The notes: generated by a model not told the origin, from the sequence alone. A stretch of DNA of 64,000 nucleotides from a virus (IMGVR_UViG_3300021958_008980:1-64000), one strand, 5' to 3'; counted from the first letter of the stretch, positions 2,641 to 22,478 are shown. A program made the numbers and translations.

Positions 2641-5304
2641 ATGAGTTACATAGACGCACTATACAAAAAAGACGAAGACAAGATTTACGTGGTAGAACGT
2701 GATCCAAAGAAGGGCAGGATATTCACTGAATACGATGCCAGGTATGTGTTCTACTATCCAGACGCAAGGGGCAAACACAGGGGCATGACAGGTGAGCCTC
2801 TACAGAGAGTGATATGTTCCACAAACAAAGAATTCATAAAGGAGCAACGTATAAGGTCGAACAAGCAACTTTATGAGCATGATATCAATCCCGTGTTCAG
2901 ATGTTTGGAAGAGAATTACTTGGGTAAGGAGACTCCAAAACTGAACGTGATGTTTTTTGATATCGAGGTGGACTTCGATCCAGATCGAGGTTATTCCACA
3001 ACAGATGATCCGTTCATGCCCATTACTGCCATAAGTTGTTACATGAGCTGGACGGATCAACTGGTCACACTTGCAGTACCACCCAAGACCATAAGCATGG
3101 CGGACGCTGAAGAACTTACAAAGAGATTTGAAAACACGATGTTGTTTGAGAAAGAGAAGGACATGCTGGACGCTTTCCTACAACTTGTTGAAGACGCAGA
3201 CATACTGTCAGGTTGGAACAGTGAGGGTTACGATATCCCATACACTGTGGGTAGGATACAGAAAGTGTTGAGTGGTGATGACACAAGGAGATTGTGTTTC
3301 TGGGGCGAGAAGCCAAAGAGGAGAGTGTTCGAGAAGTACGGCAGAGAACAGTTGAGTTTCGACTTGGTAGGACGTGTACACTTGGACTTGCTAGAACTGT
3401 ACAGGAAATACACGTATGAAGAAAGGCACAGTTTCAGACTAGACGCCATAGGCGAACACGAACTGGGCGAGAAGAAGACTGTGTATGAAGGTTCACTTGA
3501 CAACTTGTACAAGAATGATTTTGGACTATTCATAGAATACAACAGGCAGGATACGGCACTGCTGGCCAAACTTGAGAAGAAATTGAAGTTCATAGAACTT
3601 GCGAACGAGATAGCACACCAGAACACCGTGCTTCTACAGACAACCATGGGTGCTGTTGCGGTTACAGAACAGGCAATCGTGAACGAGGCTCACAGACGTG
3701 GAATGCAGGTGATGGGAAGAAAATACAAAAAAGAGGGAGAAGAGAACCAGCCAGCGGCAGGTGCCTATGTGGCAACACCCACAAAAGGCATTCACGACTG
3801 GATTGGTTCCATTGATATCAACAGTCTGTATCCTAGTGTGATTAGGGCACTGAACATGGGACCTGAAACCATAGTGGGACAGATACGACCGGTCATAACA
3901 TCAGCAGAAGTAAACAGAGCCAAACATGCCAAGAAATCATTTGCGGCGGCCTGGGACAGTCAATTCGGAAGTTGGGAGTATCAAGCAGTGATGAATCAAG
4001 AGAAAGGCACAGAGATAATTGTTGATTGGGAGGACAAGACCAGTGTGCGTATGAGTGCGGCACAACTTTATGAGATCGTATTTGACGGCAACAACAAGTG
4101 GATGTTGAGTGCAAACGGAACAATATTCACCTATGAGTATGAGGCAATCATTCCAGGACTACTGAAACGTTGGTACGCAGAACGTCAAGAGATGCAACAG
4201 AAAATGCGAGAGTGTGGTGACAACGAGATCGAAAGAGAATATTGGGACAAGAGACAACTTGTAAAGAAGATTAATCTGAACAGTCTGTATGGAGCAATAT
4301 TGAATCCAGGATGTAGATTCTTTGACATCAGGATAGGTCAATCAGTGACACTTACTGGTAGATGTATAACAAAACATATGGCGAGCAAGGTAAACGAGAT
4401 TGTAGCAGGTGCATATGATCACAAGGGCGAGAGCGTGGTTTATGGTGACACTGACTCTGTGTATTTCACCGCACACAAGACACTGCAAAAAGAAATCAAC
4501 GAAGGCGTGATCCCATGGACAAAAGATTCTGTGGTTGCGTTGTATGACAAGATATCCGAAGAAGTTAATGGCTCGTTCAAAGCATTCATGACAAAGGCTT
4601 TCCACACGCCAAGCACACGTGGAGAGGTGATAAAAGCAGGTCGGGAACTTGTCGCTTCAAAAGGATTGTTCATCACGAAGAAGAGATATGCAGTTCTTTA
4701 CTATGACAAAGAGGGTAAACGTACTGACACGGAAGGTAAGGAAGGAAAGATGAAAGCGATGGGTCTTGACTTGAAACGTTCCGATACTCCAGTTTATGTA
4801 CAAGACTTTTTAAGTGATTTGCTATACATGGTACTGACTGGAAAGACTGAAACAGAAGTACTAGCAAAAATCAGCGAATTCCGTGCAGAGTTCAAGGCAA
4901 GGCCAGGTTGGGAAAAAGGATCGCCAAAGCGAGCAAACAACATGACCAAGTACACGGAAGAGGAAGAGAAGAAGGGCAAAACAAACATGCCGGGACACGT
5001 GAGAGCCAGCATGAACTGGAACAAGTGCAGGGAGATGTATGGCGACAAATACAGTATGCCCATCACTGACGGCGCAAAGGTTATTGTTTGCAAACTAAAA
5101 AGTAATCCTTTAGGCTATACCAGTATCGCCTATCCGGTGGATGAACTGCGTATACCGGAATGGTTCAAGGAATTGCCGTTCGACGGTGATGCCATGGAAA
5201 GCACGATACTTGACCAAAAGATAGATAACCTTATAGGTGTGTTAGGTTGGGACGTGCAATCAACAGAAACCACGAACACGTTCAACAAATTATTTGAATT
5301 CTAA
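2641..5304 (+). CDS. polB: family B DNA polymerase (T4 gp43-like) with 3'-5' exonuclease
   Basis: ExoI FFDIEVD, ExoII GWNSEGYDIPY, ExoIII YNRQD, region II SIDINSLYPS, region III KINLNSLYG, region I YGDTDS, KKRY. Confidence 0.97.
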   Translation: MSYIDALYKKDEDKIYVVERDPKKGRIFTEYDARYVFYYPDARGKHRGMTGEPLQRVICSTNKEFIKEQRIRSNKQLYEHDINPVFRCLEENYLGKETPKLNVMFFDIEVDFDPDRGYSTTDDPFMPITAISCYMSWTDQLVTLAVPPKTISMADAEELTKRFENTMLFEKEKDMLDAFLQLVEDADILSGWNSEGYDIPYTVGRIQKVLSGDDTRRLCFWGEKPKRRVFEKYGREQLSFDLVGRVHLDLLELYRKYTYEERHSFRLDAIGEHELGEKKTVYEGSLDNLYKNDFGLFIEYNRQDTALLAKLEKKLKFIELANEIAHQNTVLLQTTMGAVAVTEQAIVNEAHRRGMQVMGRKYKKEGEENQPAAGAYVATPTKGIHDWIGSIDINSLYPSVIRALNMGPETIVGQIRPVITSAEVNRAKHAKKSFAAAWDSQFGSWEYQAVMNQEKGTEIIVDWEDKTSVRMSAAQLYEIVFDGNNKWMLSANGTIFTYEYEAIIPGLLKRWYAERQEMQQKMRECGDNEIEREYWDKRQLVKKINLNSLYGAILNPGCRFFDIRIGQSVTLTGRCITKHMASKVNEIVAGAYDHKGESVVYGDTDSVYFTAHKTLQKEINEGVIPWTKDSVVALYDKISEEVNGSFKAFMTKAFHTPSTRGEVIKAGRELVASKGLFITKKRYAVLYYDKEGKRTDTEGKEGKMKAMGLDLKRSDTPVYVQDFLSDLLYMVLTGKTETEVLAKISEFRAEFKARPGWEKGSPKRANNMTKYTEEEEKKGKTNMPGHVRASMNWNKCREMYGDKYSMPITDGAKVIVCKLKSNPLGYTSIAYPVDELRIPEWFKELPFDGDAMESTILDQKIDNLIGVLGWDVQSTETTNTFNKLFEF

Positions 5305-5307
5305 ATA
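5302..5307 (+). promoter_or_regulatory. putative late promoter core TAAATA
   Basis: TAAATA-N5-ATG(5313); resembles the T4 late element TATAAATA and recurs before other genes. Confidence 0.45.
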
Positions 5308-5312
5308 ACCAT

Positions 5313-6125
5313 ATGCTGAGCATAGAAGAAATCAAACTTTTAATAGAAAAACTTGAGAAATTAAAAAAACAAGACGTCCAAGGACTAATCGATTTCAGTT
5401 TAAAAACTCTCAAAACCTTGGCAAACACAATCGATATACAGAATTCGGATCAGATAAACAGATTAGACAAAACCTTGAGTTGGTTTGCAATGGACAATTA
5501 CAAAAAGAGATTAGAACCTGTGGTTGACGAATTGACTAGAAGGCAAATACAAACTAAAATATTCCAATTTGGTAAAAACAGTGCCTTCAACAGCCTGGAG
5601 ATAGGCCCCGGAAATGGCATGTTTTCAAAAGATTTCCGAGCATGGAGGTTAAATTACTTCCTTGATGTGCTGAACGCAAGTTATGAAAGCAACGTTGAAA
5701 GAATCATACGTAAAAAATTTCCCCCTGCACACCAGAAATATCTAAAATTCTACATGACAGACAGAACCGACTGCTCCAGTATTCCTAGTAAAAGTTGTAA
5801 TTTTGTTTTTAGTTGGGACACATTCGTATTCTTCACACAGGATCATATCTATCAATATTTGTGGGACATCAAACGAGTGCTGTTGGATGGAGGCTATGTG
5901 TTTCTACAGTACGCTGATTGCCATTATGATTTTGATCTCAAACAGGCCAAGAGAGGTTATTGGAACTACAATACCAAGACAGCAATGGAAAAAATTATCA
6001 CAAAGACAGGTTATGAAGTAGTCGAAATGAATCAGTTCAAGCCTGGTGCCAATTATGCCATTTTTCGTACACGTGGTAAACAAAATCCAGTCGTGTACAA
6101 AGTTTCTGAAATAACACTAGACTAA
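5313..6125 (+). CDS. class I SAM-dependent methyltransferase with N-terminal coiled coil
   Basis: LEIGPGNG motif I; FVFSWDTF; DIKRVLLDGG. Confidence 0.85.
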   Translation: MLSIEEIKLLIEKLEKLKKQDVQGLIDFSLKTLKTLANTIDIQNSDQINRLDKTLSWFAMDNYKKRLEPVVDELTRRQIQTKIFQFGKNSAFNSLEIGPGNGMFSKDFRAWRLNYFLDVLNASYESNVERIIRKKFPPAHQKYLKFYMTDRTDCSSIPSKSCNFVFSWDTFVFFTQDHIYQYLWDIKRVLLDGGYVFLQYADCHYDFDLKQAKRGYWNYNTKTAMEKIITKTGYEVVEMNQFKPGANYAIFRTRGKQNPVVYKVSEITLD

Positions 6126-6146
6126 GACCTAAATATCATATACAAT
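6118..6146 (+). promoter_or_regulatory. sigma70-type promoter with TAAATA inside the spacer
   Basis: TAGACT-N17-TACAAT; TAAATA at 6130-6135; ATG 9 nt after the -10 box. Confidence 0.55.
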
Positions 6147-6155
6147 TAGAACATT

Positions 6156-6893
6156 ATGATAGACATCTTGAAAGACATCGTTAAACATACGCATGGACTG
6201 GGATTCTTGGATCTTGTCAAGATCACTGGGGACGATAAGGAAACTTCGATCGACTCAATGGCCGAAGACAGATCTGTGATCCTACAGGGGTCTTTCCACA
6301 AGCCACAGACGGAGATGACGGGTACGTTTGGTATGCCACAGATGGGCAAACTAGACATACACTTGAAGTGTCCGGAGTACAAGGAGAAGGCGAACATAAC
6401 TGTGTTGTCCGGCGAGAGAAACGGTGCGACCATTCCCACAGGGATCCATTTCGAGAATGAAAAGGGTGACTTCAAGAATGACTACAGATTTATGAATGCT
6501 GAGATCATCAATGAGAAACTTAAGACTGTGAAGTTCAAAGGTGTTAAGTGGGACGTTGAGATCGAACCTAGCGTGGCAAGTGTGCAGAGATTCAACTTCC
6601 AAGCAACTGCAAACACAGAACACAACTCATTCGTTGTGAGAACCGAGGATGGGAACTTGATTTTCACTTTCGGTGATCAAGCATCGCATGGTGGTGAGTT
6701 CGTGTTCGCAACTGACGTTAAGGGAACGCTTAACAAGGGTTGGAGTTGGCCGGTAGGACAGGTGCTACAGATACTTAAACTATCAGACTCGGCAAAGGTC
6801 ACATTACACTTCTCTAACGAGGGTGCGATGCAGGTCTCTGTTGATTCAGGATTGGGCAAGTATCAATACATCATACCAGCACAGGCGCAATAA
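6156..6893 (+). CDS. DNA polymerase sliding clamp (T4 gp45-like)
   Basis: 245 aa alpha/beta two-domain pattern (AEDRSVI...FGMPQMGKL...DSGLGKYQYIIPA) recognised from large-phage clamps; near polB. Confidence 0.7.
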   Translation: MIDILKDIVKHTHGLGFLDLVKITGDDKETSIDSMAEDRSVILQGSFHKPQTEMTGTFGMPQMGKLDIHLKCPEYKEKANITVLSGERNGATIPTGIHFENEKGDFKNDYRFMNAEIINEKLKTVKFKGVKWDVEIEPSVASVQRFNFQATANTEHNSFVVRTEDGNLIFTFGDQASHGGEFVFATDVKGTLNKGWSWPVGQVLQILKLSDSAKVTLHFSNEGAMQVSVDSGLGKYQYIIPAQAQ

Positions 6894-8341
6894 TGACGAC
6901 AGATAATAGTAAGCAAGAACATCTAGGAGACTTGAGCAGAGACTTTGCGGTGTTCTTGCCTGCTATATCTAACTTCTACAACACGTTTATCAGCAAACAG
7001 AGAGTTTCAGAAGGCAAACACATTTCGGAAGACAGGATTCCACAAGGTTTCGAGAATGGTGTAGAAGGATTGAACTTCATCAATCCAAAAGAAGGAATGT
7101 TCACATACCCAACAGCACTGTACTCGGCTGGACATGCCTGCTTGGACATGGAGAAGGTCAATGACAGGGATCACATGTTCGTAAACAGAGACAGAGAGTT
7201 CAGCACAATAGTAGGTGATTCCGGTGGATATCAGATAGGTAAGGGTGTAATAAAATTTGATTGGAAAGATTTTGAAGGTAACAAAGCAAATAAAGTGAGA
7301 TCAGATATACTGAACTGGCTTGAACTCACAAGTGACTGGGCAATGACACTAGACGTACCCACGTGGGCGGCAGATGATCTCAACTCACCAAAGACAGGAT
7401 TAACAAGTTTCCAAGACACACTGGACGGAACAATATACAACAACAAGTTCTTCCAGAAGAACAGACTGGGACAAACAAAACTATTGAACGTGCTTCAAGG
7501 TGATGACTGGAACACTGCACAGATATGGTACGACGCTGTCAAAGACTTTGAATTTGAAGGATGGGCAATGGGTGGTATCAACATGTGTGACATGGAAGTC
7601 ATGCTTAAACGTCTAATCATAATGAGAGATGAGAAGAAACTGGACGGTAAGGACTGGATGCACGTACTAGGTACGTCACAGATGGATTGGGGTTGTTACC
7701 TAACGCAGGTACAAAGGCAAGTTAGAAAACATATAAATCCTAACTTCACAATAAGTTTTGACAGTGCATCAGCATTCTTATCAACTGCTAATGGACTTGT
7801 ATACACGCACAACTCATTCACTCCAGACAGATGGTCGTTTGTGATGGACAAGGCACCAGATGATAAAACATTAAAGGGTTCAGACATACAGTTTCCGTTC
7901 GACAGTGGCATAGGACGTAGGCTTAAGATGAAAGATGTCTGCTGGTATGGTGAGCAGGACGTCAACAAGAATGGTAAAATTGGTGCTACAAGTTGGGACA
8001 GTTTCAGTTATGTGCTGATGATGGCACACAACGTATATAATCAGATCAGAGCAATACAGATAGCAAACGATTTAAACGACATAGAATCAAGGAAATACAG
8101 ACCAGAAGTAAAACACTGGAGAAAAACAAAGGCAAGTGACAAGACAGACGAACCTAGCATATACGTTCCTAGGAACATATTGTATTTCAACACACTTGTT
8201 GAAGAAGTATTCACCAGCGAGAAACCAATGGAAGTCATAAGCAACGCATCAAGTTATCTGGCAGACATCCGAGGCAACAGATGGGCCAGAGCTACAGGTG
8301 GTGGTAAAGGCACAAACAATTTCAGTTCTTTATTTGAATAG
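6893..8341 (+). CDS. TGT-fold guanine transglycosylase (DpdA-like)
   Basis: DSGGYQ (TGT DSGGFQ), MTLDVP, VLQG, GWAMGG, HVLG, SFDS in TGT order; no CxCxxC zinc site. Confidence 0.8.
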   Translation: MTTDNSKQEHLGDLSRDFAVFLPAISNFYNTFISKQRVSEGKHISEDRIPQGFENGVEGLNFINPKEGMFTYPTALYSAGHACLDMEKVNDRDHMFVNRDREFSTIVGDSGGYQIGKGVIKFDWKDFEGNKANKVRSDILNWLELTSDWAMTLDVPTWAADDLNSPKTGLTSFQDTLDGTIYNNKFFQKNRLGQTKLLNVLQGDDWNTAQIWYDAVKDFEFEGWAMGGINMCDMEVMLKRLIIMRDEKKLDGKDWMHVLGTSQMDWGCYLTQVQRQVRKHINPNFTISFDSASAFLSTANGLVYTHNSFTPDRWSFVMDKAPDDKTLKGSDIQFPFDSGIGRRLKMKDVCWYGEQDVNKNGKIGATSWDSFSYVLMMAHNVYNQIRAIQIANDLNDIESRKYRPEVKHWRKTKASDKTDEPSIYVPRNILYFNTLVEEVFTSEKPMEVISNASSYLADIRGNRWARATGGGKGTNNFSSLFE

Positions 8342-8574: not shown

Positions 8575-9111
8575 ATGGATCGAGATTACAAGACAGGCAA
8601 AAGTGACAGTGTAGGTATATTTTCAGGATTAGAAATAGAACACACACCCGCACTTGGTAAACAAACATTATTCCTTGCGAGGAATGATTTACTGTTTGAT
8701 CGGATAATAGAATTAGCAGAACAGGTCAATGCCGAAGCAATTTACTTCGGTGCCAACAGAAGTTTCATGCACAATATAGCCAACACATCACAACTGATAA
8801 AAAGATTAATGGACAGCGGTTACTGGTGCACAATAGACTATCAACACAGTGTACACGCAGAAGTCAAGGAGAGATTCAAGGACATATGGAAGGAAGAAAA
8901 GTTTATACCATTCTGTTCTGTGATATTCCCTAGTTCAGAGGAGGATGATAATCTATGTATAAAAGTAGATGACGTAGATTTCAATGCAACAGGACCAGGT
9001 GTGTGGACAATGAGCATGAACCATTTCAAACAAAGTGCAGGATTCACATCGTGGGATGAATACAAACAGGATGAACCAATAGAGGAGAACAATGCCAAAA
9101 AAGCAGTCTAA
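8575..9111 (+). CDS. hypothetical protein heading the queD-like transcription unit
   Basis: 178-aa globular-looking ORF; no family recognised. Confidence 0.75.
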   Translation: MDRDYKTGKSDSVGIFSGLEIEHTPALGKQTLFLARNDLLFDRIIELAEQVNAEAIYFGANRSFMHNIANTSQLIKRLMDSGYWCTIDYQHSVHAEVKERFKDIWKEEKFIPFCSVIFPSSEEDDNLCIKVDDVDFNATGPGVWTMSMNHFKQSAGFTSWDEYKQDEPIEENNAKKAV

Positions 9112-9286
9112 AGAAGATCTTGAGTACAAGGAAGGTGTTGCTGTTTTCAACCAATGGAACAGACACAATAAAAAACTGGAGAAAATGGGATTGCATGGCA
9201 CGGACTACTACGTGAGAAGGGTCGAAGAACTAGAAGCAAAAGTAAAAAGATTAGAAGCAAGACTAAAAACAAAGGGGAAAAAATGA
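9092..9286 (+). CDS. small hypothetical coiled-coil protein
   Basis: 64 aa; overlaps both neighbours; GAGGAG upstream. Confidence 0.6.
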   Translation: MPKKQSKEDLEYKEGVAVFNQWNRHNKKLEKMGLHGTDYYVRRVEELEAKVKRLEARLKTKGKK

Positions 9287-9708
9287 GTACTGAGGAAATG
9301 AGAGATCAAGCATTGACAGAACAGGCCAACAAAGGTCATAAAATGATTTGGGTCACTTTTAGAAAAGAAGGCATCCACAAGTATCCAGCGGCACTGGATG
9401 ATCCCAAACTAGCAACAGGTGATGAGTATGATGTGAGTTTCCTAGGACATCCTCACAGACACATATTCCATTTCAAAGTTGCGATAGAAGTGTTCCACGA
9501 TGACCGAGACATTGAATTCATACAGTTCAAGAGATGGATGGAGAACATGTACGCAGATGGCACAATGAAACTAGACTACAAGAGTTGTGAGATGATATCA
9601 GATGATTTGTACGTGGCGATCGCAAAAAGATATCCAGGTAGGAAGATTGAAATAGACGTGGCAGAGGACGGTGAGAATGGCTCACACGCAGTATATGAAA
9701 GAGATTAA
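9283..9708 (+). CDS. queD: QueD/6-pyruvoyl-tetrahydropterin synthase-like T-fold protein
   Basis: FRKEGIHKY...HPHRHIFHFKVAIEV...DIEF and SCEMIS mirror the QueD F-x-A-A-H...H-G-H...DF...T-x-E pattern; folE and queE are in the window. Confidence 0.65.
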   Translation: MSTEEMRDQALTEQANKGHKMIWVTFRKEGIHKYPAALDDPKLATGDEYDVSFLGHPHRHIFHFKVAIEVFHDDRDIEFIQFKRWMENMYADGTMKLDYKSCEMISDDLYVAIAKRYPGRKIEIDVAEDGENGSHAVYERD

Positions 9709-10015
9709 ATTCAAAGAATCAAGGGCAACATCAAGGATGGGATACCTACCCATAGAAGGTGGTGGCCTGAATGCTTCATACACGACGGTGGACGCAGTGG
9801 CAAACATATGCACAACGGCGGGCAACCTGGGAATGAAGTATGGCAAGGATTTCATCTGGTCAGGCACAGACTGGGATGACAATGACGACGACTGTATCAC
9901 TCTGATGGTGAAGGAAGACAAGTATGAGTCCTTCTTACACCTGGCCCTGCAGAATGATCACAGGATTAAACACACCAACACGGGCCAAATCAAACTGATC
10001 AAGGAGAGAAAATAA
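9695..10015 (+). CDS. hypothetical protein
   Basis: Likely start ATG 9695; overlaps neighbours. Confidence 0.65.
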   Translation: MKEIKFKESRATSRMGYLPIEGGGLNASYTTVDAVANICTTAGNLGMKYGKDFIWSGTDWDDNDDDCITLMVKEDKYESFLHLALQNDHRIKHTNTGQIKLIKERK

Positions 10016-10437
10016 TGGACTTAAAAGAAAGTAAAACAGCAGAGAATCTTAAAGACGCTTTCGCAGGTGAAAGCCAAGCAAACAGAAGATACCTATACTT
10101 CGCACAGAAGGCCGACATAGAGGGAGCACCAGATGTTGCGGCGGTATTCAGAAGCACAGCAGAAGGTGAAACAGGACACGCACACGGACACCTGGAATAC
10201 TTGGAAGAAGTTGGAGATCCAGCGACAGGTGAGAAGATGGGTGAAACAGAAGACAACCTTAAAAGTGCTATCGCAGGTGAGACGCACGAGTACACAGACA
10301 TGTACCCAGGCATGGCAAGAACAGCCAGGGAAGAAGGATTTGAAGAAATCGCTGACTGGTTCGAAACACTTGCAAAAGCAGAGAAATCACACGCAGGTAA
10401 GTTCCAGAGAACACTGGACGCTTACAAAGGAGCATAA
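10015..10437 (+). CDS. rbr: rubrerythrin (ferritin-like di-iron domain, no rubredoxin tail)
   Basis: AFAGESQANRRY, EGETGH, AGETHEYTDMYP, AEKSH di-iron ligands. Confidence 0.92.
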   Translation: MDLKESKTAENLKDAFAGESQANRRYLYFAQKADIEGAPDVAAVFRSTAEGETGHAHGHLEYLEEVGDPATGEKMGETEDNLKSAIAGETHEYTDMYPGMARTAREEGFEEIADWFETLAKAEKSHAGKFQRTLDAYKGA

Positions 10438-10973
10438 TGAGAGTACCATACACCAACTTCAAGACTAGGATTGGCGACGATAACGCTATCGGTGGCTGTA
10501 CTTTCATAGGTGGTGAATGGAAAGAAGTTGATACTACGGAGATATTTGACAATAAGAAAGTTGTTGTGTTCGCCCTTCCAGGGGCGTTCACACCTACTTG
10601 TAGTTCTCAACAACTTCCTGGCTACGAAGAGAAGTATGATGAAATTAAAGCACTAGGCGTTGATGAAGTATACTGTTTGTCAGTGAATGACGCATTCGTA
10701 ATGAATGCTTGGTTCAGAGACGAGAAAATAGTAAAGGTCAAAGCAATAGGTGACGGTGAGGGCGTGTTCACGCAGGGAATGGGTATGTTGGTCAACAAAC
10801 CCAAACAAGGGTTTGGAATGAGATCATGGAGATACTCTATGCTAGTAGACAATGGAGAGGTTGTGAAAGTGTTCGAAGAATCTGGCAAGAACAACGCCAG
10901 CGACGACAACGATCCATTTGAAGTATCAGACGCTGACACAATGATCAACTACCTTAAGGAAAATGCCGGGTAG
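10437..10973 (+). CDS. peroxiredoxin (Prx5/Redoxin family)
   Basis: ALPGAFTPTCSSQQLPGY, SVNDAFVM, RSWRY. Confidence 0.93.
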   Translation: MRVPYTNFKTRIGDDNAIGGCTFIGGEWKEVDTTEIFDNKKVVVFALPGAFTPTCSSQQLPGYEEKYDEIKALGVDEVYCLSVNDAFVMNAWFRDEKIVKVKAIGDGEGVFTQGMGMLVNKPKQGFGMRSWRYSMLVDNGEVVKVFEESGKNNASDDNDPFEVSDADTMINYLKENAG

Positions 10974-11268
10974 TTGGGACGGTAAATCAAGACCATCTAA
11001 TGATTCCTACAGAAGGAATTTTGATGAAATATTTGCCAAAGAAAAAGAACTGACCGATATATCTATGAAACAGAGTATTGCAAACAAGAGAGAACGACAG
11101 CAGAAGAAGTCTTGTCCTTGCGGTAGATCACCAGTTGGTATATGTATCGGTTGGCACAGTCTGAGTAAAGAGCGTTACCAAGAAGAACTTAAAAAATGGA
11201 ATGATAAAACCGAGAAAGAAAAACAGGCCATTTATCATCCAAAGGCCATAGACGGTCTCGGAGATTAA
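10963..11268 (+). CDS. protein with CDGSH-like Fe-S/Zn motif
   Basis: CPCGRSPVGICIGWH. Confidence 0.55.
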   Translation: MPGSWDGKSRPSNDSYRRNFDEIFAKEKELTDISMKQSIANKRERQQKKSCPCGRSPVGICIGWHSLSKERYQEELKKWNDKTEKEKQAIYHPKAIDGLGD

Positions 11269-11589: not shown

Positions 11590-11618
11590 AATTTTTTTCC
11601 ATGCTTACAGATATAATC

Positions 11619-11628: not shown

Positions 11629-12774
11629 ATGTCGAAAAAATTGCTTGAAAAAAATTTTTGTGTATTACCATGGACAGGATTCCAGTTAGAGCCAGATGGA
11701 TATGTCAAACAATGTATAATAAGCAAAAATAATTTGGGACATAGCCATAAAGAGAACATAGAAACAATACTCAAAAACAATCCTTTAAGAAAACAAATGT
11801 TGCACGGTGAATATCCCACTAATTGCGATGGTTGTTATCTACAAGAAAAACACCGAAATAAAGATTTTCAATCTATCAGTAGTAGATTGTACTACGCAAA
11901 AAATTTAGCAACAAAAATAAGTCCTGACCTCGTTGAACACGAGGATAATTTTGATCTCAAACATGTGGACCTACGTTGGAACAACATGTGCAATCAAGCC
12001 TGTGTTTACTGTGATCCAATTTACAGTAGTAAGTGGGCTCAAGAACTAGGAGTCAAAATTCCTAAAGATAAGCCTAGCCTAGACAGAGTAAAACAATACG
12101 TTTATGACAGGATCGAACACTTAGAAAATGTATATTTGGCAGGAGGTGAGCCACTTTTAATGAAACAGAACAAAGAATTTTTAGACCTTTTGCTTGAGAA
12201 AAATCCAAATGTCACCATAAGAGTTAACACAAACCTTAGTAAAACCGAGACCGGAGTATTCGAAACAATCTGCAAGTTTAAGAATGTACATTGGACGGTC
12301 AGTGTAGAAACAATCAAAGATGAATACGAATATATAAGATACCATGGTAATTGGGCGGATTTTTTGGCAAATCTTAAAATCATATCAAAGTTAGACCATT
12401 TGATTTCATTTAACATGCTTTATTTTGTGCTTAATCATCACAGTATCTTTGACTGCGTTAAATTTCTGCAGGGCATGGGATTTCATAACAATAGTTTTGT
12501 AATAGGACCCTTGTACAGGCCAGAACCACTTAACGTACTCAATTTACCAGCCCATTTGGTCAAAGAGTGCAAAGATAGGTTGCAGGAAGAAATTGATAAG
12601 AAGCCTGGTTTTCTTTTACAGAATGGCTTAGAAAACTGCCTAAGTTATTTGACTGATACAGAATTTAATGCTAATATAGAAGAAACAAAAAAAATATTAA
12701 AAAATATGGATTCACGTAGAAACATCGACAGTAAGAAAGTGTTTCCTGAATTATACCAAAAGGCTTTTAAATGA
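11629..12774 (+). CDS. radical SAM protein with N-terminal twitch/SPASM-like domain
   Basis: CVLPW...C...CDGC, then CNQACVYC and GGEP. Confidence 0.9.
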   Translation: MSKKLLEKNFCVLPWTGFQLEPDGYVKQCIISKNNLGHSHKENIETILKNNPLRKQMLHGEYPTNCDGCYLQEKHRNKDFQSISSRLYYAKNLATKISPDLVEHEDNFDLKHVDLRWNNMCNQACVYCDPIYSSKWAQELGVKIPKDKPSLDRVKQYVYDRIEHLENVYLAGGEPLLMKQNKEFLDLLLEKNPNVTIRVNTNLSKTETGVFETICKFKNVHWTVSVETIKDEYEYIRYHGNWADFLANLKIISKLDHLISFNMLYFVLNHHSIFDCVKFLQGMGFHNNSFVIGPLYRPEPLNVLNLPAHLVKECKDRLQEEIDKKPGFLLQNGLENCLSYLTDTEFNANIEETKKILKNMDSRRNIDSKKVFPELYQKAFK

Positions 12775-13937
12775 AAATATTTTACATGGGGCTCGAGTCA
12801 TACCAAGCAAGGTACACATATCAATTAACAGACTGGACGAAACGTGCATACGACAAACGTAAGATAGATTACGTGATTGTTCCAGGAGACACCATAGACG
12901 ATTCCGAGGCCATAGTCACAGGACAGGTGCTTGACGCACACGGCAGAAGTTATTTTGGCATGAGCCAGATGATGAACCTGGTCAAAATGCTGAAGGCAGG
13001 TGAAATCACAAACAAGGATGCAATATTTTTCGAGGACATGTTCCAACCGGGCATGGAATCATTACCCTACATTCTACAACAGACACCTGAGAAATACAGG
13101 CCAACCATATATTTGAGATGCTTGGCACAGGCCATAGACCCAGATGACTTTGTACACGTTTGGGGCATGAGCAAATGGATGAGTCTATATGAACAGATGT
13201 GTAATGAAATTCCAAATGTAATCATACTTGCAAGTAATGAAGAGATGGTGGCACACATGAGGATAGCCAACTGGAAGGCACCCATATACAACATATCAGG
13301 TCTGAGCTTTGGCAAGGAAGAAGTGCAATCGAGAGTTGAACAGAAACCTTTCATGCAGAGAAAAAACAGAGTGGTGTTTGGTGCTAGATGGGATCAAGAG
13401 AAGCAACCACAGTTTTTCTTGGACATGATACAAAAATTCAAAGAAAAACATCCTGAAACAGAGTTTGTGATATGTCAAGGTGGACCATTGAGATCCAACA
13501 ACGACTACTATGTAAAAGAAGCAAAGTATCTTGAGAAACAAGGATTGCTGACCATACATGAAAATTTAAAGAAAAACGAATACTACGAAATACTGGCTGA
13601 CTCAAGGGTGTTGTTCAATTGTGCATTACAGGACTGGACATCGAACACAGTGAGTGAAGCGGACGCATTAGGTTGCAACGTGCTGTTTCCGGCATACAGG
13701 TCATTTCCGGAAGTGTTCGCGAATGATCATACAAGAATGTATGTTCCATGGTCGCAGGAAGATGCAATGAATAAACTAGAATTACTATTAAGCAAACCAT
13801 CCCCTAGTATGGGTCAAATATCAGATTGGACCAATGGCACAATTGACAGGATGTTGGACATCATGACAGGCAAGGGCGAACAATGGAGAAGAGATGGATC
13901 CCACTACAGAACACCCGTTTCAGAATACAAATATTAA
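12771..13937 (+). CDS. GT-B glycosyltransferase (GT4-like)
   Basis: FGARWDQEKQPQFF and SEADALGCNVLFPAYRSFPE in the C-terminal Rossmann domain. Confidence 0.8.
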   Translation: MKIFYMGLESYQARYTYQLTDWTKRAYDKRKIDYVIVPGDTIDDSEAIVTGQVLDAHGRSYFGMSQMMNLVKMLKAGEITNKDAIFFEDMFQPGMESLPYILQQTPEKYRPTIYLRCLAQAIDPDDFVHVWGMSKWMSLYEQMCNEIPNVIILASNEEMVAHMRIANWKAPIYNISGLSFGKEEVQSRVEQKPFMQRKNRVVFGARWDQEKQPQFFLDMIQKFKEKHPETEFVICQGGPLRSNNDYYVKEAKYLEKQGLLTIHENLKKNEYYEILADSRVLFNCALQDWTSNTVSEADALGCNVLFPAYRSFPEVFANDHTRMYVPWSQEDAMNKLELLLSKPSPSMGQISDWTNGTIDRMLDIMTGKGEQWRRDGSHYRTPVSEYKY

Positions 13938-14925
13938 AGGTGTAAACAAAGCAGTGCTAGTGACCGGTGGTGCAGGTTACGTAGGCTCGCACACTTGCAA
14001 ATTGTTGGCAAAAAACGGATACCTTCCAGTAACAGTCGACAGACACTTCAGAGAAGGACTTAAATCCTATGGACCAAATCACAATTTGCACCTTCCACAG
14101 GAAATAGACAGACTGGATGAGATTATAAAAAGATACAACATCACAAGTTGCATACACTTCGCAGGTAGCACAAGTGTTCCGGAAAGTGTTGCAAATCCTT
14201 CGTTGTATTACAAGAACAATTTCATAGTCACACTGTCATTAGTGGACAAACTGATAGAGTGTGGCGTGAACACTTTCGTGTACAGTTCTAGTGCGGCCAC
14301 ATACGGTGACCCAGGATTTAGAAAATGCAAAGAAACAGATGTACCAAAACCCATCAGTGCTTATGGTGGCAGTAAACTCATGATCGAGATGATGTGTAGA
14401 GATTACATGACTGCGTACGGATTGAGCAGTGTTGGCCTAAGATATTTCAACGCCGCGGGAGCAGACCCAGATGGCGAGATAGGTGAGCTCAGAGAAAAAG
14501 AGACCCACATAGTGCCGCTTGCCATAGAGGCGGCGAGGCACGGTAAAACTTTTAAGATATTTGGAGACAAATATGATACCCCCGACGGTACGTGTGTGAG
14601 AGATTACGTGCATGTGATGGACCTGGCAGACGCTCACGTGAAAGCGTTGAATTACGCTTCGGAGAAATTGAGATCGGAAGTTTTCAATCTTGGTTCAGGT
14701 GCCCCGGCATCTAACCGAGAACTGCTAGATACAGTTCAAAAATACACAGGCAAAATGAATATCGAAGTACACGGAAACAGGCCAGGGGATCCTCCTTACC
14801 TAGTTGCAGACACGACAAAAGCAAAAAAAATACTAGGATGGGAGCCCACACAGAGTTCTATTGACAACGTGGTGGCAACTGCTGTACAATGGTATAACAA
14901 GACACACAAGAAGGAAATACAATAA
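13894..14925 (+). CDS. galE: UDP-glucose 4-epimerase
   Basis: VTGGAGYVGSH, HFAG, YSSSAATYG, YGGSK, LRYFNAAGA, CVRDYVHV. Confidence 0.93.
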   Translation: MDPTTEHPFQNTNIKGVNKAVLVTGGAGYVGSHTCKLLAKNGYLPVTVDRHFREGLKSYGPNHNLHLPQEIDRLDEIIKRYNITSCIHFAGSTSVPESVANPSLYYKNNFIVTLSLVDKLIECGVNTFVYSSSAATYGDPGFRKCKETDVPKPISAYGGSKLMIEMMCRDYMTAYGLSSVGLRYFNAAGADPDGEIGELREKETHIVPLAIEAARHGKTFKIFGDKYDTPDGTCVRDYVHVMDLADAHVKALNYASEKLRSEVFNLGSGAPASNRELLDTVQKYTGKMNIEVHGNRPGDPPYLVADTTKAKKILGWEPTQSSIDNVVATAVQWYNKTHKKEIQ

Positions 14926-15638
14926 TGAGCGAAGATATTTTGAAAGATAGTTGGATGCCTGAAACACCAATCAGTAAAAAGATAAAGGAGAGAATCAAAA
15001 AGGCAGGCAAGAGATTCCATTCAAATGACAACATCTCTGAATACATAGAAGATGGTGAGATGGATCTGTTACAAGCAGAGGTACAAGAAAAACTACAAGG
15101 TGTGTTAGACAGCCTTGTGATTGACACGGAAAATGATCATAACACGAACGAGACTGCGAAACGTGTGGCCAAGATGTACATCAGGGAAACGTTTGGTGGC
15201 AGGTTCAAGCCAGCACCAAGGGTTACGAGTTTCCCTAACATGGGTTACAAGAGCATGTACACCAGTGGTCCAATATCGATCAGATCAACGTGTGCCCATC
15301 ACTTCCAGAACATCGTGGGAAAAGCATGGGTAGGCATCATCCCTAATGGTGAAGTGATTGGATTGAGCAAGTTCAACAGGATCGTGCATCACATCGTGGA
15401 GAGACCACAGATACAGGAAGAAATGACAACACAGATCGCAGATGAATTGAAGAAATATGCTAAGACAGAGAATCTTGCAGTGGTAGTCAAAGCAGAACAT
15501 CACTGCATGACACACAGAGGTGTGAGAGAACACGAATCAGATATGACCACAGCGATAATGCTAGGTGCGTTCAAAGATGACCCAGCAACCAGAGACGAGT
15601 TTTATAAAATCTGTATGAGCATGAAGGGTCATGGCTAA
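14925..15638 (+). CDS. folE: GTP cyclohydrolase I
   Basis: STCAHH, GLSKFNR, RPQIQEEMT, AEHHCMTHRG. Confidence 0.96.
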   Translation: MSEDILKDSWMPETPISKKIKERIKKAGKRFHSNDNISEYIEDGEMDLLQAEVQEKLQGVLDSLVIDTENDHNTNETAKRVAKMYIRETFGGRFKPAPRVTSFPNMGYKSMYTSGPISIRSTCAHHFQNIVGKAWVGIIPNGEVIGLSKFNRIVHHIVERPQIQEEMTTQIADELKKYAKTENLAVVVKAEHHCMTHRGVREHESDMTTAIMLGAFKDDPATRDEFYKICMSMKGHG

Positions 15639-15936
15639 AAAAACAAAAAAACAATTAAAGATCGAGCAGGCTAACATGCAATCGGACAACATGGAAATGG
15701 CAGGTTGGAGTGAGGGTTTGAATACCGGTGGAGTTGTGACAACTGCCACTGTGAACATGGACATGGATCCAGACTTCTCGTACAGTTACGGAGAACTAGG
15801 TGACATGGGACAGTTGGACCTTTTTGATGAAATGGAATTGAGGGACAAGTATCCTGCACTGAACCAAGCATGGGAACACTATCGGAGTGTGCTAGAAGTA
15901 TGTAAAACAAAAGAAAAGGAAGAAAATGAGGATTAA
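15631..15936 (+). CDS. hypothetical acidic protein
   Basis: 101 aa; overlaps folE and guaC; ends KYPALNQAWEHY. Confidence 0.65.
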   Translation: MAKKTKKQLKIEQANMQSDNMEMAGWSEGLNTGGVVTTATVNMDMDPDFSYSYGELGDMGQLDLFDEMELRDKYPALNQAWEHYRSVLEVCKTKEKEENED

Positions 15937-16975
15937 CACAGAACCAAAACTTAATTTTGAGGACGTATTGCTACAGCCAAAACGTTCGACACTGTCCAGC
16001 AGGAGAGATGTGGACATGACTCGTAAGTTCACGTTCCGTAATTCAGGTAAGGTAATGGATTTCCTTCCCATATTCGCAAGTAACATGGATGGTGTTGGCA
16101 CATTCTCCATGGCAAAAGAAATGCAGAAGCACAAGATGATGACTGTGATAACAAAGACCACAACACCAGAACAGTGGAAAGAGGCCGCAGGCACAGGATT
16201 GAGAATGCAATCTGTATCAGTGTGTACAGGAACCAATGTGATGTGGGATCCAGAAGCACCTGATTGGGCGACCATGAATAAAGTTTTAGAAATGTTTCCA
16301 GATGTAAAGATGATAACTGTTGATGTAGCAAACGCATATCATCAGAACATGGTAGATTTCATAAAAAAAGTTAGAGATGAATACCCAGACAAGGTCATCA
16401 TAGCAGGTAATGTTGTCACACCTGAAATGACGGAAGAATTAATCATTAATGGTGCTGACGTGGTCAAGATAGGCATAGGACCAGGATCAGTTTGTACAAC
16501 AAGGACAATGACCGGTGTAGGAGTACCTCAATTTAGTGCAATAGTTGATTGTTCAGATGCCGCGAACGGTGTCGGTGGACACATAATGGCGGACGGTGGT
16601 TGCGTGTACCCAGGTGATATAGCAAAAGCATTCGGTGGCGGAGCACACATGGTCATGATAGGTGGCATGTTGGCAGGGCATGATGAATCAGAACAGCCGG
16701 TAGTGGATGGCAAGGTAGAATTTTATGGAATGAGCTCAGATAGGGCTCGTGAGAAACATGGTAAACGTAAAGACGGATACAGGGGCAACGAGGGAAGACT
16801 GATATCATTGCCACACAGAGGACCTGTTGAACCAACATTAGAAGACATACTGGGTGGAGTGAGGAGTGCCTGCACATACATAGGTGCGAGAAGACTCAAA
16901 GACATGGCCAAGTGTGCCAGTTTCGTTACGACCAACAACGTGATCAACAGGGTATATGAGCGATACACCAAATAA
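15926..16975 (+). CDS. guaC: GMP reductase (type 1)
   Basis: DVLLQPKRS, SNMDGVG, GIGPGSVCTTR, ADGGC, FYGMSS; 349 aa, no CBS domains. Confidence 0.93.
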   Translation: MRINTEPKLNFEDVLLQPKRSTLSSRRDVDMTRKFTFRNSGKVMDFLPIFASNMDGVGTFSMAKEMQKHKMMTVITKTTTPEQWKEAAGTGLRMQSVSVCTGTNVMWDPEAPDWATMNKVLEMFPDVKMITVDVANAYHQNMVDFIKKVRDEYPDKVIIAGNVVTPEMTEELIINGADVVKIGIGPGSVCTTRTMTGVGVPQFSAIVDCSDAANGVGGHIMADGGCVYPGDIAKAFGGGAHMVMIGGMLAGHDESEQPVVDGKVEFYGMSSDRAREKHGKRKDGYRGNEGRLISLPHRGPVEPTLEDILGGVRSACTYIGARRLKDMAKCASFVTTNNVINRVYERYTK

Positions 16976-17288
16976 CATAGAACCAATCAAAGAGAAACTG
17001 GACGACAAGATCCGGAAACTGAACTCATCAAGGGTGATCAAGAAAGTTACACCCAAGGGGGACCTCTCTTGGTACGTGAAATGGGTCTCTGTGTTCTTTA
17101 TATTAGTGGCCACGGCGGCCAGAGGTGTTGGCACCATACCACACATAGACATGTGGTTTGGACTAGTAGGCACAGTGGGTTGGGCATGGGTTGGATACCT
17201 TTGGCACGACAGGGCACTGCTGTTCCTTAACGCAATACTTGTGACATTGTTAATAATGGGTTTAATGAATTACTATTTTGGAATATGA
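16956..17288 (+). CDS. small membrane protein (DUF6552-like)
   Basis: SWYVKW...GWAWVGYLWHDRALLFLN; three hydrophobic helices. Confidence 0.65.
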   Translation: MSDTPNNIEPIKEKLDDKIRKLNSSRVIKKVTPKGDLSWYVKWVSVFFILVATAARGVGTIPHIDMWFGLVGTVGWAWVGYLWHDRALLFLNAILVTLLIMGLMNYYFGI

Positions 17289-17749
17289 GCGAAGAAGTTA
17301 AAAAGAATTATTTCACTACAGGACAGATGCGTAACGCACTGATCCAGATAGAGGACAAGATGGTTCACTCAAACTGGATGCCATCGGTCATACTTGGAAT
17401 CAATCGGGGTGGATGCATACCTGGAGTGTACCTTTCCCACAGGTTGAAGACTGCACACGAGGTGCTGGACATCAGATTGAGGGATCACACCGTCAAGCCT
17501 GACCTACGCACATTAGAAAAAGCATTCGCATTCCAAAAGAAGATATTGATCATAGACGACATAAACGATTCCGGAGCCACGTTCCAGTACATACTTGACA
17601 ACTTCGGCAAAAGAGAAGATCGTATTAGATTTGCCGCACTCATAAACAACAAGCCTAGTAAGGTCAAAGTAGATTACCACGGGTATGAGATCAACAAAGA
17701 CGAAGCACCCGCTTGGATAGTCTTCCCGTGGGAACAATGGGACAAGTAA
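17285..17749 (+). CDS. type I phosphoribosyltransferase (xanthine/guanine PRT-like)
   Basis: GINRGG, LIIDDINDSGAT PRPP loop, WIVFPWE. Confidence 0.9.
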   Translation: MSEEVKKNYFTTGQMRNALIQIEDKMVHSNWMPSVILGINRGGCIPGVYLSHRLKTAHEVLDIRLRDHTVKPDLRTLEKAFAFQKKILIIDDINDSGATFQYILDNFGKREDRIRFAALINNKPSKVKVDYHGYEINKDEAPAWIVFPWEQWDK

Positions 17750-18353: not shown

Positions 18354-18962
18354 ATGTTTAAAAACGTAGACAAATCAATGCTGATGAAATTGGTGTTACT
18401 ACATGTTGTGGTGATCACTGTTTCAAATGCGTTAGTGGCGATCCCAGTAGAGATACTTGGAGTCAAACTGACGTGGGCGGCATTCACATTCCCATTGGTC
18501 GTTATAGCCACTGACTTGACTGTAAGACTATTGGGCAAACACATAGCCAGAGCCACAATCGCGGCGGCGTATCCATTAGCAATAATCGGATCCATCGCAG
18601 TAGTGTTGGCGGAAGGCGCACCACAATCGGTTGCTTTAAGGATTGGCTTCGCAAGTGCCACTGCTTACGCTATCGGTACTTTACTTGACGTGTACGTATT
18701 CCAATACATAAGGGAATCAAAGACATACGGCAAGAACTGGTGGATGGCACCAGCGGTATCTACTATCGCGGCCAACATAATTGACACTTACACATTCTTT
18801 GCAGTTGCATTCAACAACAGCGCCGACGAGTACATGGCGGCGAACTGGGTTGAGATCGCGGGATCGCAGGTGGTGTTGAAAATCATAGTGGGACTGGTTG
18901 TGTTCTTACCAGCATACGGATTATTGCTGAACAGACTACAGAAGACCTACAAACTCAAATAA
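18354..18962 (+). CDS. yhhQ: queuosine-precursor (preQ0/preQ1) transporter, YhhQ/VUT family
   Basis: SNALV, TWAAFTFP...ATDLTVRLLG, RIGFASATAY, LLDVYVF, IDTYTFFAVAF. Confidence 0.9.
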   Translation: MFKNVDKSMLMKLVLLHVVVITVSNALVAIPVEILGVKLTWAAFTFPLVVIATDLTVRLLGKHIARATIAAAYPLAIIGSIAVVLAEGAPQSVALRIGFASATAYAIGTLLDVYVFQYIRESKTYGKNWWMAPAVSTIAANIIDTYTFFAVAFNNSADEYMAANWVEIAGSQVVLKIIVGLVVFLPAYGLLLNRLQKTYKLK

Positions 18963-21182: not shown

Positions 21183-21603
21183 CATATATCACATTTGGGC
21201 AAACAAGAAACAAGGCATAAGTGATAATGATTTTGCTAATGGAATGAGACGATTCCTTAGACAACTCCAAGACGAAGGAAAGATGATTTCATTTAGGATC
21301 ACAAGGTGTAAATTAGGTTTCCGTTCCATACAGGATTTGCCCGAATGGCACATAATGATGGAGTTTCACAACATGGCGCAACTTGAGGAGGCATTTTCTA
21401 GAGTGGTTCCACAACAAGGAGAGTTGGAAGAGAAACACACTTCTTTCAACAAGTATGTTGAAAACGACATACAACACGCACTTTACCGAGACTGGCCTGA
21501 TACAGTGAACAAGTCAAAGTTGACAAAAACAAAAGAGTCATATACAATTAAGGAGTTAGCGGAGGCAACTAAAAACATAGATCCAACAATATGGAAAAAA
21601 TAA
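21175..21603 (+). CDS. DUF6614-like protein
   Basis: TTG start at 21175 behind AGGAGG; YHIWA...FRITRCKLGF...EWHIMMEF. Confidence 0.6.
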   Translation: MADIYHIWANKKQGISDNDFANGMRRFLRQLQDEGKMISFRITRCKLGFRSIQDLPEWHIMMEFHNMAQLEEAFSRVVPQQGELEEKHTSFNKYVENDIQHALYRDWPDTVNKSKLTKTKESYTIKELAEATKNIDPTIWKK

Positions 21604-22478
21604 GATATTCGGAAATATTTTACAGTGTACAGGGCGAGGGCAGATTCGTTGGTGTGCCTAGCGTGTTCTTCCGTGTGTTTGGTTGCAATTTCCACTGCCA
21701 CGGATTTGGACAAGGCAGAGACAGGAGCAAATGGTTGAAACCTGAGGAGATGCCATACGCTACCCAAGACCTTTCAGATGTTAAACACGTGAGCGAACTG
21801 CCAGTGGTAGAGATAGGTTGTGACGCTAGTGCAAGTTGGTCAAACAGATATAAACATCTAGTCAACTGGGATGATGTCAGCAAAATAGCAAAGGACGTGA
21901 CGGCGTACACTCCACAGAACAAATGGACTTGCGACAATGGACAGGATGTACACTTTATAATCACAGGTGGCGAACCTATGCTGTGGCAAAGAGAAACACA
22001 ACAACTGTTAAGGCAACCAGAATTCAATGACTTGAAAAACATCACGATAGAAACAAATTGCACACAACCATTCAAAGAAGGATTTGACAAATTCTTGCAT
22101 GGCTTGGTCAATGGTGACTACACAAAAGAACCAGTACACATCACTTGGTCGACATCACCAAAACTATCGATATCTGGAGAGGCATGGGACAAGGCCATAA
22201 GGCCGGATGTTGCTAAACAGTACGCATCTATTCCAAACACACACCTCTATTACAAATTTGTGGTGCAGGACGAACAGGACCTTGACGAAGTGAATAGGGC
22301 AAGAGATGAATATCACAAAGCGGGAGTAGACGCAGACATATGGTTAATGCCAATGGGCGCAACACAAGAGGGACAGGCTAAAACTGCCGGTCAGGTTGCA
22401 GAGATGGCGATGAAACACGGTTTCAAATATTCTCCGAGGCTACATGTTGATCTGTTCGGAAATAAATGGGGAACCTAA
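21591..22478 (+). CDS. queE: 7-carboxy-7-deazaguanine synthase (radical SAM)
   Basis: EIFYSVQGEG, FRVFGCNFHC...CD, ITGGEP, IETN, SPKL, PRLH. Confidence 0.9.
   Translation: MEKIRYSEIFYSVQGEGRFVGVPSVFFRVFGCNFHCHGFGQGRDRSKWLKPEEMPYATQDLSDVKHVSELPVVEIGCDASASWSNRYKHLVNWDDVSKIAKDVTAYTPQNKWTCDNGQDVHFIITGGEPMLWQRETQQLLRQPEFNDLKNITIETNCTQPFKEGFDKFLHGLVNGDYTKEPVHITWSTSPKLSISGEAWDKAIRPDVAKQYASIPNTHLYYKFVVQDEQDLDEVNRARDEYHKAGVDADIWLMPMGATQEGQAKTAGQVAEMAMKHGFKYSPRLHVDLFGNKWGT

Follow-up and report, generated by a model that had tools for sequence, protein, structure and literature searches.

The viral sequence IMGVR_UViG_3300021958_008980, from a large uncultured marine phage, is a 76,464-base linear IMG/VR record, itself a fragment, of which positions 1-64000 (64,000 nucleotides, hereafter the window) were analyzed. 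A first annotation of this stretch, made without database searches (the sequence-only reading), had proposed a row of genes encoding a family B DNA polymerase (polB), a methyltransferase, a sliding clamp, and a 482-amino-acid (aa) protein with the fold of tRNA-guanine transglycosylases (TGTs), and these open reading frames (ORFs) are indeed present, all on the plus strand (Table 1). The 482-aa protein is the subject of this study. It is read here, with a probability of roughly 0.7 for the reading as a whole, as a divergent zinc-less DpdA-type DNA guanine transglycosylase that would install a 7-deazaguanine, or a derivative of it, supplied by a phage-encoded pathway while tethered to the phage sliding clamp. 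The fold, conserved residues, gene neighborhood, and a shared sequence motif carry this reading, and a DNA substrate, the nature of the base, and clamp binding would follow from them.

A TGT fold for the 482-aa protein, which sequence comparison with Pfam, PHROGs, NCBIfam, and PDB sequences leaves unproven, is borne out by its predicted structure. The AlphaFold2 (AF2) model, computed from an alignment of 47 diverse members of the enzyme family (26-51% identity), has a predicted local distance difference test score (pLDDT) of 92.2 and a predicted template modeling score (pTM) of 0.91. The 50 best matches listed in a Foldseek search of the PDB are all tRNA-guanine transglycosylases (E from 1.9e-8, probability 1.00), with no bacterial DpdA chain among these top 50. 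VIA-align superposes residues 16-431 of the model on residues 14-357 of T. maritima TGT (Z 19.5, root-mean-square deviation 4.6, 306 residues), and bacterial TGT, archaeal ArcTGT, and eukaryotic QTRT1 resemble the model over the whole length of the fold (Z 18-19.5, ~300 residues), making the predicted structure a full-length TGT fold. A family-profile search of PDB sequences returned TGT as its sole match, at an E of 0.13 that is suggestive and not significant by itself.

Each of the catalytic motifs recognized earlier (DSGGYQ, LDVP, LQG, HVLG, and FDS) occurs in the protein, and a hidden Markov model (HMM) alignment to TGT places DSGG on D102, LDVP on D156, and LQG on Q203, so that the enzyme has equivalents of the DSGGYQ motif, D156, and Q203 of tRNA TGTs. 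Residues D109, S110, G112, H257, and D290 are invariant in the 47 members and D154 is conserved in at least 90%; mapped by position from TGT, D109 would serve as the general acid/base, D290 as the nucleophile, and D154 as the substrate Asp. The zinc site, in agreement with the sequence-only reading, is absent: CxCxxC occurs in none of the 47 members, and the 482-aa protein has just four Cys residues and no conserved cluster. Of these members, 41 of 47 retain H379, which belongs to an HN motif and corresponds to the fourth zinc-ligand position of TGT. The long N- and C-terminal extensions that had also been described did not stand up: the catalytic DSGG, at residue 102 of Z. mobilis TGT, is found here at 109, and the structural alignment covers the model from residue 15-16 to 431-441 against almost the entire TGT, leaving no extension at the N-terminus. 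The extra length of the enzyme lies instead after the nucleophile Asp, in a replaced zinc subdomain with extra helices, and in a disordered tail of ~20 residues (residues 464-482, pLDDT <50).

The Pfam TGT model PF01702 matches neither the 482-aa protein nor anything else in the record from which the window is taken; three of the 47 relatives match it, at E 0.0045 or weaker, and it finds nothing in the records of phages 9g, nt-1, PA5oct, 2.275.O, and Phosso. Since the model is blind to the records of 9g (DpdA1) and nt-1 (DpdA2), such a failure is usual for phage DpdAs, and because PF01702 and family-HMM searches miss phage DpdAs generally, a second DpdA may be present in those phages.

The enzyme family is large, with more than 5,800 proteins among 8,000 candidates scored (90% clusters) and 953 clusters at 50% identity. 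Its members come from marine jumbo-phage contigs of up to 353 kb, from Tara samples, and from three isolates, Pseudomonas phage PA5oct, Sinorhizobium phage Phosso, and Vibrio phage 2.275.O. A tblastn search from the 482-aa enzyme reaches 13 records only, which are PA5oct-like phages, Phosso, and 2.275.O, and the PA5oct homologue (EST35_0316) is 41% identical to the enzyme of the window. In a structure search of BFVD with the enzyme model, the best match is a 596-aa protein of 2.275.O, and a "TGT" of Achromobacter phage Motura (E 3.5e-13), the DpdA2 of nt-1 (E 4.3e-10), and a 259-aa protein of phiST (E 5.7e-4) are also found.

Among named enzymes, the closest relative of the family appears to be DpdA2, through a remote link at the profile-profile level only. 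In hhalign comparisons the family scores 93.4% against nt-1 DpdA2 alone and 97.7% (E 2.4e-12) against an alignment of five DpdA2 sequences (nt-1, KVP40, pf16, ACP17, and Moby), over 179 core columns only and at ~19% identity, with HxLG and ISYDS as common motifs and D290 aligned with the Asp of ISYDS. Phage DpdA2 enzymes (Vibrio phages nt-1 and VH7D, Acidovorax phage ACP17; Hutinet, 2019; Cui et al., 2023) resemble the family in their zinc-less TGT core with DSGG(L/Y/F)Q, (F/L)D, HxLG, and ISYDS(S/T), in a similar length (424-464 aa), and in being encoded with FolE, QueD, and QueE. Unlike them, the present enzymes are always encoded directly after the clamp gene, and most members have an acidic C-terminal extension. 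By the operational definition of DpdA2 as what BLAST/PSI-BLAST retrieves from nt-1 (Hutinet, 2019), the family is not retrieved: tblastn from nt-1 DpdA2 matches 71 phage records, none with this family (PA5oct, Phosso, and 2.275.O not among them), and the family HMM has no match in the whole nt-1, phiST, and 9g records. As neither BLAST nor HMM searches join the two, the family is treated as separate and, judged by these comparisons, is best described as a zinc-less subfamily sister to DpdA2.

DpdA3, known from Cellulophaga phage phiST (CGPG_00065), a phage in which all G is replaced by 2′-deoxy-7-deazaguanosine (dDG), and from Campylobacter phages, is likewise encoded with FolE, QueD, QueE, and DpdL, without QueC, and near a polymerase, but it is much shorter (259 aa) and its phiST member reaches an hhalign score of 39.9% (E 3e-4) over 86 columns. 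The bacterial DpdA of Salmonella Montevideo shares the TGT fold and an Asp pair, D95/D256 there and D109/D290 here, and works on DNA with a DNA-associated helper, for which the replication clamp is the proposed counterpart in the present case; unlike the phage enzyme, it relies on DpdB, a ParB-like ATPase, and alters <0.1% of G (PMC10164549), and no DpdB-like gene was noted near the 482-aa enzyme gene.

That the nearest solved structures, among the matches listed, are all tRNA TGTs, and that a YhhQ precursor transporter is encoded in the window, would also fit a tRNA-guanine transglycosylase that tunes translation by placing a queuosine precursor in tRNAs of the host or the phage. This is the weakest of the alternatives and a highly improbable one: the zinc subdomain of tRNA TGTs, with its CxCxxC, is lost in all 47 members, the enzyme lies below Pfam TGT detection, and a tRNA scan of the window found no tRNA gene. 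The gene also sits in a replication module, near polB and between the clamp gene and that of a DpdL-type protein, and its product ends in a clamp-type tail; its nearest phage kin are DpdA2 enzymes, for which DNA modification has been demonstrated; and the DNA of PA5oct itself appears to be G-modified (PMC12191111). The proposal that the protein belongs to a divergent, DNA-acting DpdA clade is supported by the fold, by the profile kinship with DpdA2, and by its 7-deazaguanine gene context.

This context was compared by tblastn across 84 sequences, comprising 80 IMG/VR loci, the window, and the three isolate phages; the 80 loci were retrieved via 11 closer sequences and are biased to relatives of at least 51% identity. 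The conserved gene order is polB, clamp, transglycosylase, a 178-aa protein, DpdL, a group 1 (GT-B) glycosyltransferase-like protein, FolE, a phosphoribosyltransferase, and a QueE-like protein (Table 1). The DpdL-type protein of the window is 32% identical to phiST DpdL (E 1e-15) and 58% identical to ACP17 gp125, and its gene lies 0.5-4.2 kb downstream of the transglycosylase gene in 52 of the 53 loci whose downstream flank reaches 3 kb or more. PA5oct and Phosso have a DpdL gene too, and none was found in 2.275.O, where QueF, YhhQ, QueC, a Gat-type protein, and FolE adjoin the enzyme homologue. In the census of Hutinet (2019), 2.275.O is listed with FolE, QueD, QueE, QueC, and YhhQ, and its DpdA columns are empty. 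The 178-aa protein between the transglycosylase and DpdL receives no name from Pfam, PHROG, or Atlas, and has no BLAST similarity to phiST DpdL.

The QueE-like protein keeps the N-terminal signature of QueE, with CNFHC followed by HGF and not the usual spacing to the third Cys, and scores far below every QueE cut-off. It is 32% identical to a PA5oct protein annotated as QueE, and its homologue in 2.275.O, AUS03059, is the QueE of Hutinet (2019); it is a divergent radical-SAM variant found also in PA5oct and 2.275.O. Among five large relatives, QueD (PF01242) was found in four and QueC (PF06508) in none, including a 353-kb contig rated 99% complete. Because QueC is missing and DpdL is present, the inserted base is most likely 7-deazaguanine or a derivative.

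Further support comes from Acidovorax phage ACP17, whose module holds gp122 (the 178-aa family), gp123 (DpdA2), gp124 (glycosyltransferase-like, 37% identical to the PA5oct protein), gp125 (DpdL), and QueE. Since ACP17 carries the same module with a recognized DpdA2 in the corresponding slot, the 482-aa protein sits in the slot of a DpdA. Cui et al. (2023) treat ACP17 as a phage with DpdA and DpdL. For PA5oct, which carries the family itself, a preprint describes restriction-resistant DNA reported with modified G, which END nucleases specific for G-modified phages target, and names QueE and a PTPS gene but not a transglycosylase (PMC12191111). Iyer et al. (2021; PMC7824862) state that PA5oct has "a deazaguanine synthesis/incorporation system."

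Downstream of the DpdL gene, the glycosyltransferase-like gene is followed by one for an NAD-dependent epimerase/dehydratase that runs into folE (window positions 12771-14925), and the two could point to a base derivative bearing a sugar. After folE, genes for a GMP reductase, an XPRT-like enzyme, and a YhhQ transporter are grouped (15926-18962), and this group could serve to recycle released guanine, to import a precursor, or to feed a route at the nucleotide level. In the last case, the 7-deazaguanine would enter DNA through the nucleotide pool, the phosphoribosyltransferase making a 7-deaza-GMP analogue that kinases and a reductase convert to a dNTP for incorporation by polB, and the TGT-like enzyme polishing residual G or acting on nucleotides. 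An XPRT-like phosphoribosyltransferase beside FolE in 32 of the 84 sequences, the GMP reductase and a zeta-toxin/AAA_33-type kinase in the window, and the extent of replacement in the DpdL-type phage phiST (302,000 dDG per 10^6 nucleotides), which would be hard to achieve after replication, all fit such a route. It is nonetheless judged improbable: the phosphoribosyltransferase could equally recycle guanine freed by base exchange, the TGT-like gene is the most conserved member of the module, a clamp-type tail is sensible only for a DNA-acting enzyme, and Cui et al. (2023) argue that every 7-deazaguanine modification of DNA known so far arises after replication.

The protein encoded immediately upstream of the transglycosylase had been labeled a sliding clamp, by sequence a guess, as this 245-aa protein belongs to no Pfam or NCBIfam family and matches only an unnamed PHROG. 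Its predicted fold confirms the label. An AF2 model built from an alignment with 49 homologues from related loci has a pLDDT of 93, and Foldseek matches it over its full length to yeast PCNA (E 4.7e-12, query-normalized TM-score (TMq) 0.70) and, more broadly, to the PCNAs of yeast, humans, and archaea (E from 5e-12 to 3e-10, with TMq 0.65-0.72); the 245-aa neighbor is thus predicted to be a PCNA-type two-domain sliding clamp. Its homologues are labeled "structural protein" in PA5oct (EST35_0314, with electrospray tandem mass spectrometry (ESI-MS/MS) evidence; L001:7915-8661) and "virion structural protein" in Phosso (L003:8181-8903), so that either these annotations mislead or virions contain the clamp as packaged protein.

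In the window, the clamp and transglycosylase genes overlap as the sequence-only reading had noted, the clamp stop codon TAA (6891-6893) and the ATG (6893-6895) sharing one base within TAATG at 6891-6895. The translational coupling deduced from this overlap holds within the subclade of the window and was rejected as a trait of the family, in which TAATG-type overlaps occur in just 12 of 82 loci; gaps of 0-30 nucleotides are found in 20 and gaps of >150 nucleotides in 50, and in PA5oct an 86-aa ORF is annotated inside the gap. The general feature is a clamp gene followed by a transglycosylase gene, not the stop/start overlap. The methyltransferase gene between polB and the clamp gene has a homologue in eight of the 84 sequences and appears to be a recent insertion specific to the subclade of the window.

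A possible association with the replisome, also raised earlier, gains support from this near-universal synteny with polB and the clamp and from a peptide that the enzyme shares with the polymerase. In the window, polB ends in ...TNTFNKLFEF and the enzyme in ...TNNFSSLFE, and the pairing recurs in distant relatives with a lineage-specific spelling: NNTDLFDW in polB and NNNDLFGW in the enzyme of 2.275.O, HFDSLFGW and SFNSLFDV in PA5oct, and SLDDLFE and TLDELFE in ACP17, where the enzyme is the recognized DpdA2. Of 80 enzymes, 57 have a motif [FY]xx[LIMF]F among their final 75 residues, whereas none of 431 segments of 75 residues from the folded bodies of these enzymes has it. In polB the motif, as [FY]xx[LIM]F, is confined to the final 12 residues and is present there in 77 of 78 homologues. 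The polymerase and the enzyme are the sole plausible genes of the window to end in F..LF. The 353-kb relative rated 99% complete yields 456 crude gene calls, and of these only the same two, as plausible genes, have N.[FY]..[LIM]F near the C-terminus, one further match being a low-complexity 111-aa ORF. After the peptide, an acidic, leucine-containing extension of ~30 residues is conserved in most members (L020-L090; PA5oct, L001:8998-10620), as in ...NPDDDELRALEE..., and is absent from the clade of the window and from polB.

In T4/RB69 and in archaea, family B polymerases classically dock on the clamp through a hydrophobic peptide at the C-terminus; in T4/RB69 the tail of the gp43 polymerase docks in this way on the gp45 clamp. 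Several T4/RB69 proteins (gp43, gp33, and gp55) end in the hydrophobic peptide of the polymerase on a flexible linker and share the gp45 clamp. Because of the analogy with the gp43 tail and gp45, the shared partner of polB and the transglycosylase is most likely the adjoining clamp, on which the enzyme is probably docked via its polB-like tail peptide. As with the clients of gp45, the hydrophobic peptide lies on a disordered C-terminus and is common to polymerase and enzyme; unlike them, the motif is NxFxxLF and not LDFLF, and the putative client would be a DNA base-exchange enzyme. A literature search found no paper linking DpdA to a sliding clamp and no description of a DNA base-exchange enzyme as a clamp client. 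The chances are about even that phage DpdAs from two or more subfamilies, namely the present one and the ACP17-type DpdA2, are sliding-clamp clients through a copied polymerase peptide, with exchange coupled to the fork and not a free post-replicative scan.

In the mechanism proposed here, D290 would displace guanine in phage DNA to give an intermediate with enzyme and DNA covalently joined, as TGT and bacterial DpdA chemistry suggests, with D109 acting as the general acid/base, and a free 7-deazaguanine base would then attack and become installed. Judging from gene content, FolE, QueD (encoded elsewhere in the genome in relatives), and the QueE-like protein would supply 7-carboxy-7-deazaguanine, and the DpdL-type protein, encoded two genes downstream of the enzyme, is the predicted decarboxylase; the 178-aa and glycosyltransferase-like proteins may also take part. 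The tail would dock the enzyme on the clamp, placing base exchange on newly replicated DNA.

Several points weigh against this proposal. For every family member it rests on sequence and predicted structure, and single-protein searches with the 482-aa enzyme find no match in Pfam, PHROGs, NCBIfam, or PDB sequences. On the side of the pathway, the QueE-like protein matches QueE models at its N-terminus only, and a search of the 76-kb record holding the window, which is a fragment, gave no QueD. The evidence for modified G in PA5oct consists of restriction data from a preprint (PMC12191111). As reported by Cui et al. (2023), dpdA and dpdL of ACP17 or phiST produced no dDG in E. coli, and given this failed reconstitution the DpdL route is itself unproven. 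As for the tether, 23 of the 80 enzymes have only degenerate versions of the motif, and in most members the peptide is internal, with ~35 residues between it and the end and an acidic DDDELRALEE-type stretch after it, unlike in polB. In the near-complete relative, moreover, polB and the enzyme are the only proteins with the motif, with no ligase, flap endonuclease (FEN), or other classic client among them, and the common partner could be something other than the clamp.

These last observations would suit a DNA transglycosylase without a clamp tether, whose peptide either binds another partner, such as single-stranded DNA-binding protein (SSB), helicase, or clamp loader, or is a localization or degradation signal. 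Such an arrangement is considered rather unlikely, although less so than the tRNA and nucleotide-pool alternatives, given that the clamp gene adjoins the enzyme gene in 82 of the 84 sequences, that the tails of family B polymerases classically dock on clamps, and that the ACP17 pair ends in LD[DE]LFE, like the T4 gp43 tail. A clamp-tethered DNA guanine transglycosylase of the DpdA type thus remains the preferred reading of the 482-aa protein.

Table 1. Features of the window, with the evidence for each predicted identity and the number of the 84 compared sequences in which a homologue was found, a count limited by flank length at each locus.
Feature	Coordinates	Strand	Evidence	Sequences (of 84)
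Family B DNA polymerase polB, 887 aa, ending ...TNTFNKLFEF	2641..5304	+	Pfam DNA_pol_B 1.2e-35; exonuclease domain 7e-18; phrog_262 2e-195	78
polB C-terminal peptide NTFNKLFEF, presumed clamp-docking motif	5275..5301	+	Docking by analogy with T4/RB69 gp43 tail
Class-I S-adenosylmethionine (SAM)-dependent methyltransferase	5313..6125	+	Weak Methyltransf_11 8.7e-6
Predicted PCNA-type sliding clamp, 245 aa, adjoining the transglycosylase	6156..6893	+	AF2 pLDDT 93; Foldseek yeast PCNA	82
Zinc-less TGT-fold enzyme, 482 aa, putative divergent DpdA-type guanine transglycosylase	6893..8341	+	AF2, Foldseek, VIA, hhalign	84
C-terminal peptide NNFSSLFE of the 482-aa enzyme, end of disordered tail, copy of polB tail	8315..8338	+
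Conserved 178-aa protein between transglycosylase and DpdL	8575..9111	+	Homologue ACP17 gp122 (L095:5591-5989), E 2e-14	76
DpdL-type T-fold protein (QueD paralogue), predicted 7-carboxy-7-deazaguanine (CDG) decarboxylase	9283..9708	+	Motif LxxxHRHxF as LGHPHRHIF	73
Rubrerythrin	10015-10437
Peroxiredoxin-type redoxin	10437-10973
SET-domain protein	11269-11589
Twitch-domain radical SAM protein	11629-12774		NCBIfam N_Twi_rSAM 2.7e-75
GT-B (group 1) glycosyltransferase-like protein	12771..13937	+	Pfam Glycos_transf_1 2.6e-9; homologues PA5oct EST35_0317, ACP17 gp124	60
GTP cyclohydrolase I FolE, first step to 7-deazaguanines	14925..15638	+	Pfam 4.7e-47; NCBIfam FolE 3.7e-50	42
GMP reductase GuaC	15926..16975	+	NCBIfam PRK05096 1.4e-135, above cut-off
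Xanthine/guanine-type phosphoribosyltransferase	17285..17749	+	Pfam Pribosyltran 1.6e-12; NCBIfam XPRT 1.1e-10	32
YhhQ-family preQ0/preQ1 (queuosine precursor) transporter	18354..18962	+	TIGR00697 2.2e-31, above cut-off; PRK11212 3.3e-57; Pfam Vut_1
Divergent QueE-like radical-SAM protein	21591..22478	+	Match to QueE models over N-terminal 45 residues only (E 5e-10, far below cut-off)	33

Other features of the window lie outside the proposed modification pathway. Positions 10015-12774 hold a run of unusual auxiliary genes (Table 1), and a full-length TctA subunit of a tripartite tricarboxylate transporter, an unusual auxiliary metabolic gene for a phage, is encoded at 22557-23993 (Pfam 4.5e-94). 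At ~35,500-36,000 both the GC and AT skews and the coding strand reverse, plus-strand genes giving way to minus-strand genes, which marks a module boundary or a replication-related switch.

Phages whose DNA contains 7-deazaguanine are shielded against restriction and against some CRISPR nucleases, and the signature gene for such DNA is taken to be DpdA. The enzyme family described here is large and is missed by every sequence library tested. The present analysis adds its profile link to DpdA2, the equivalence of the ACP17 module and the tails encoded there, the census in which QueC is absent and QueD present, and the tie to the PA5oct restriction data. PA5oct is a therapeutic candidate phage for whose modified G the authors of the preprint named no transglycosylase, and, if the reading is correct, the family would be the unnamed enzyme behind that modification. 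Recognizing the family also closes the gap that the 2019 census left for 2.275.O, entered there with "no DpdA," and leads one to expect DNA of the dDG type in a marine phage lineage that is widespread; on the same condition, a very abundant group of marine jumbo phages would have 7-deazaguanine DNA. The 178-aa and GT-B-like proteins are candidate "missing enzymes" that may explain why the DpdL route could not be reconstituted in E. coli. Clamp docking offers a testable mechanism by which a base-exchange enzyme reaches an entire 300-kb genome; if phage DpdAs are indeed clamp clients, this would explain the very high or complete G replacement in some phages and would add DNA base exchange, as a new class, to the activities directed by clamps.

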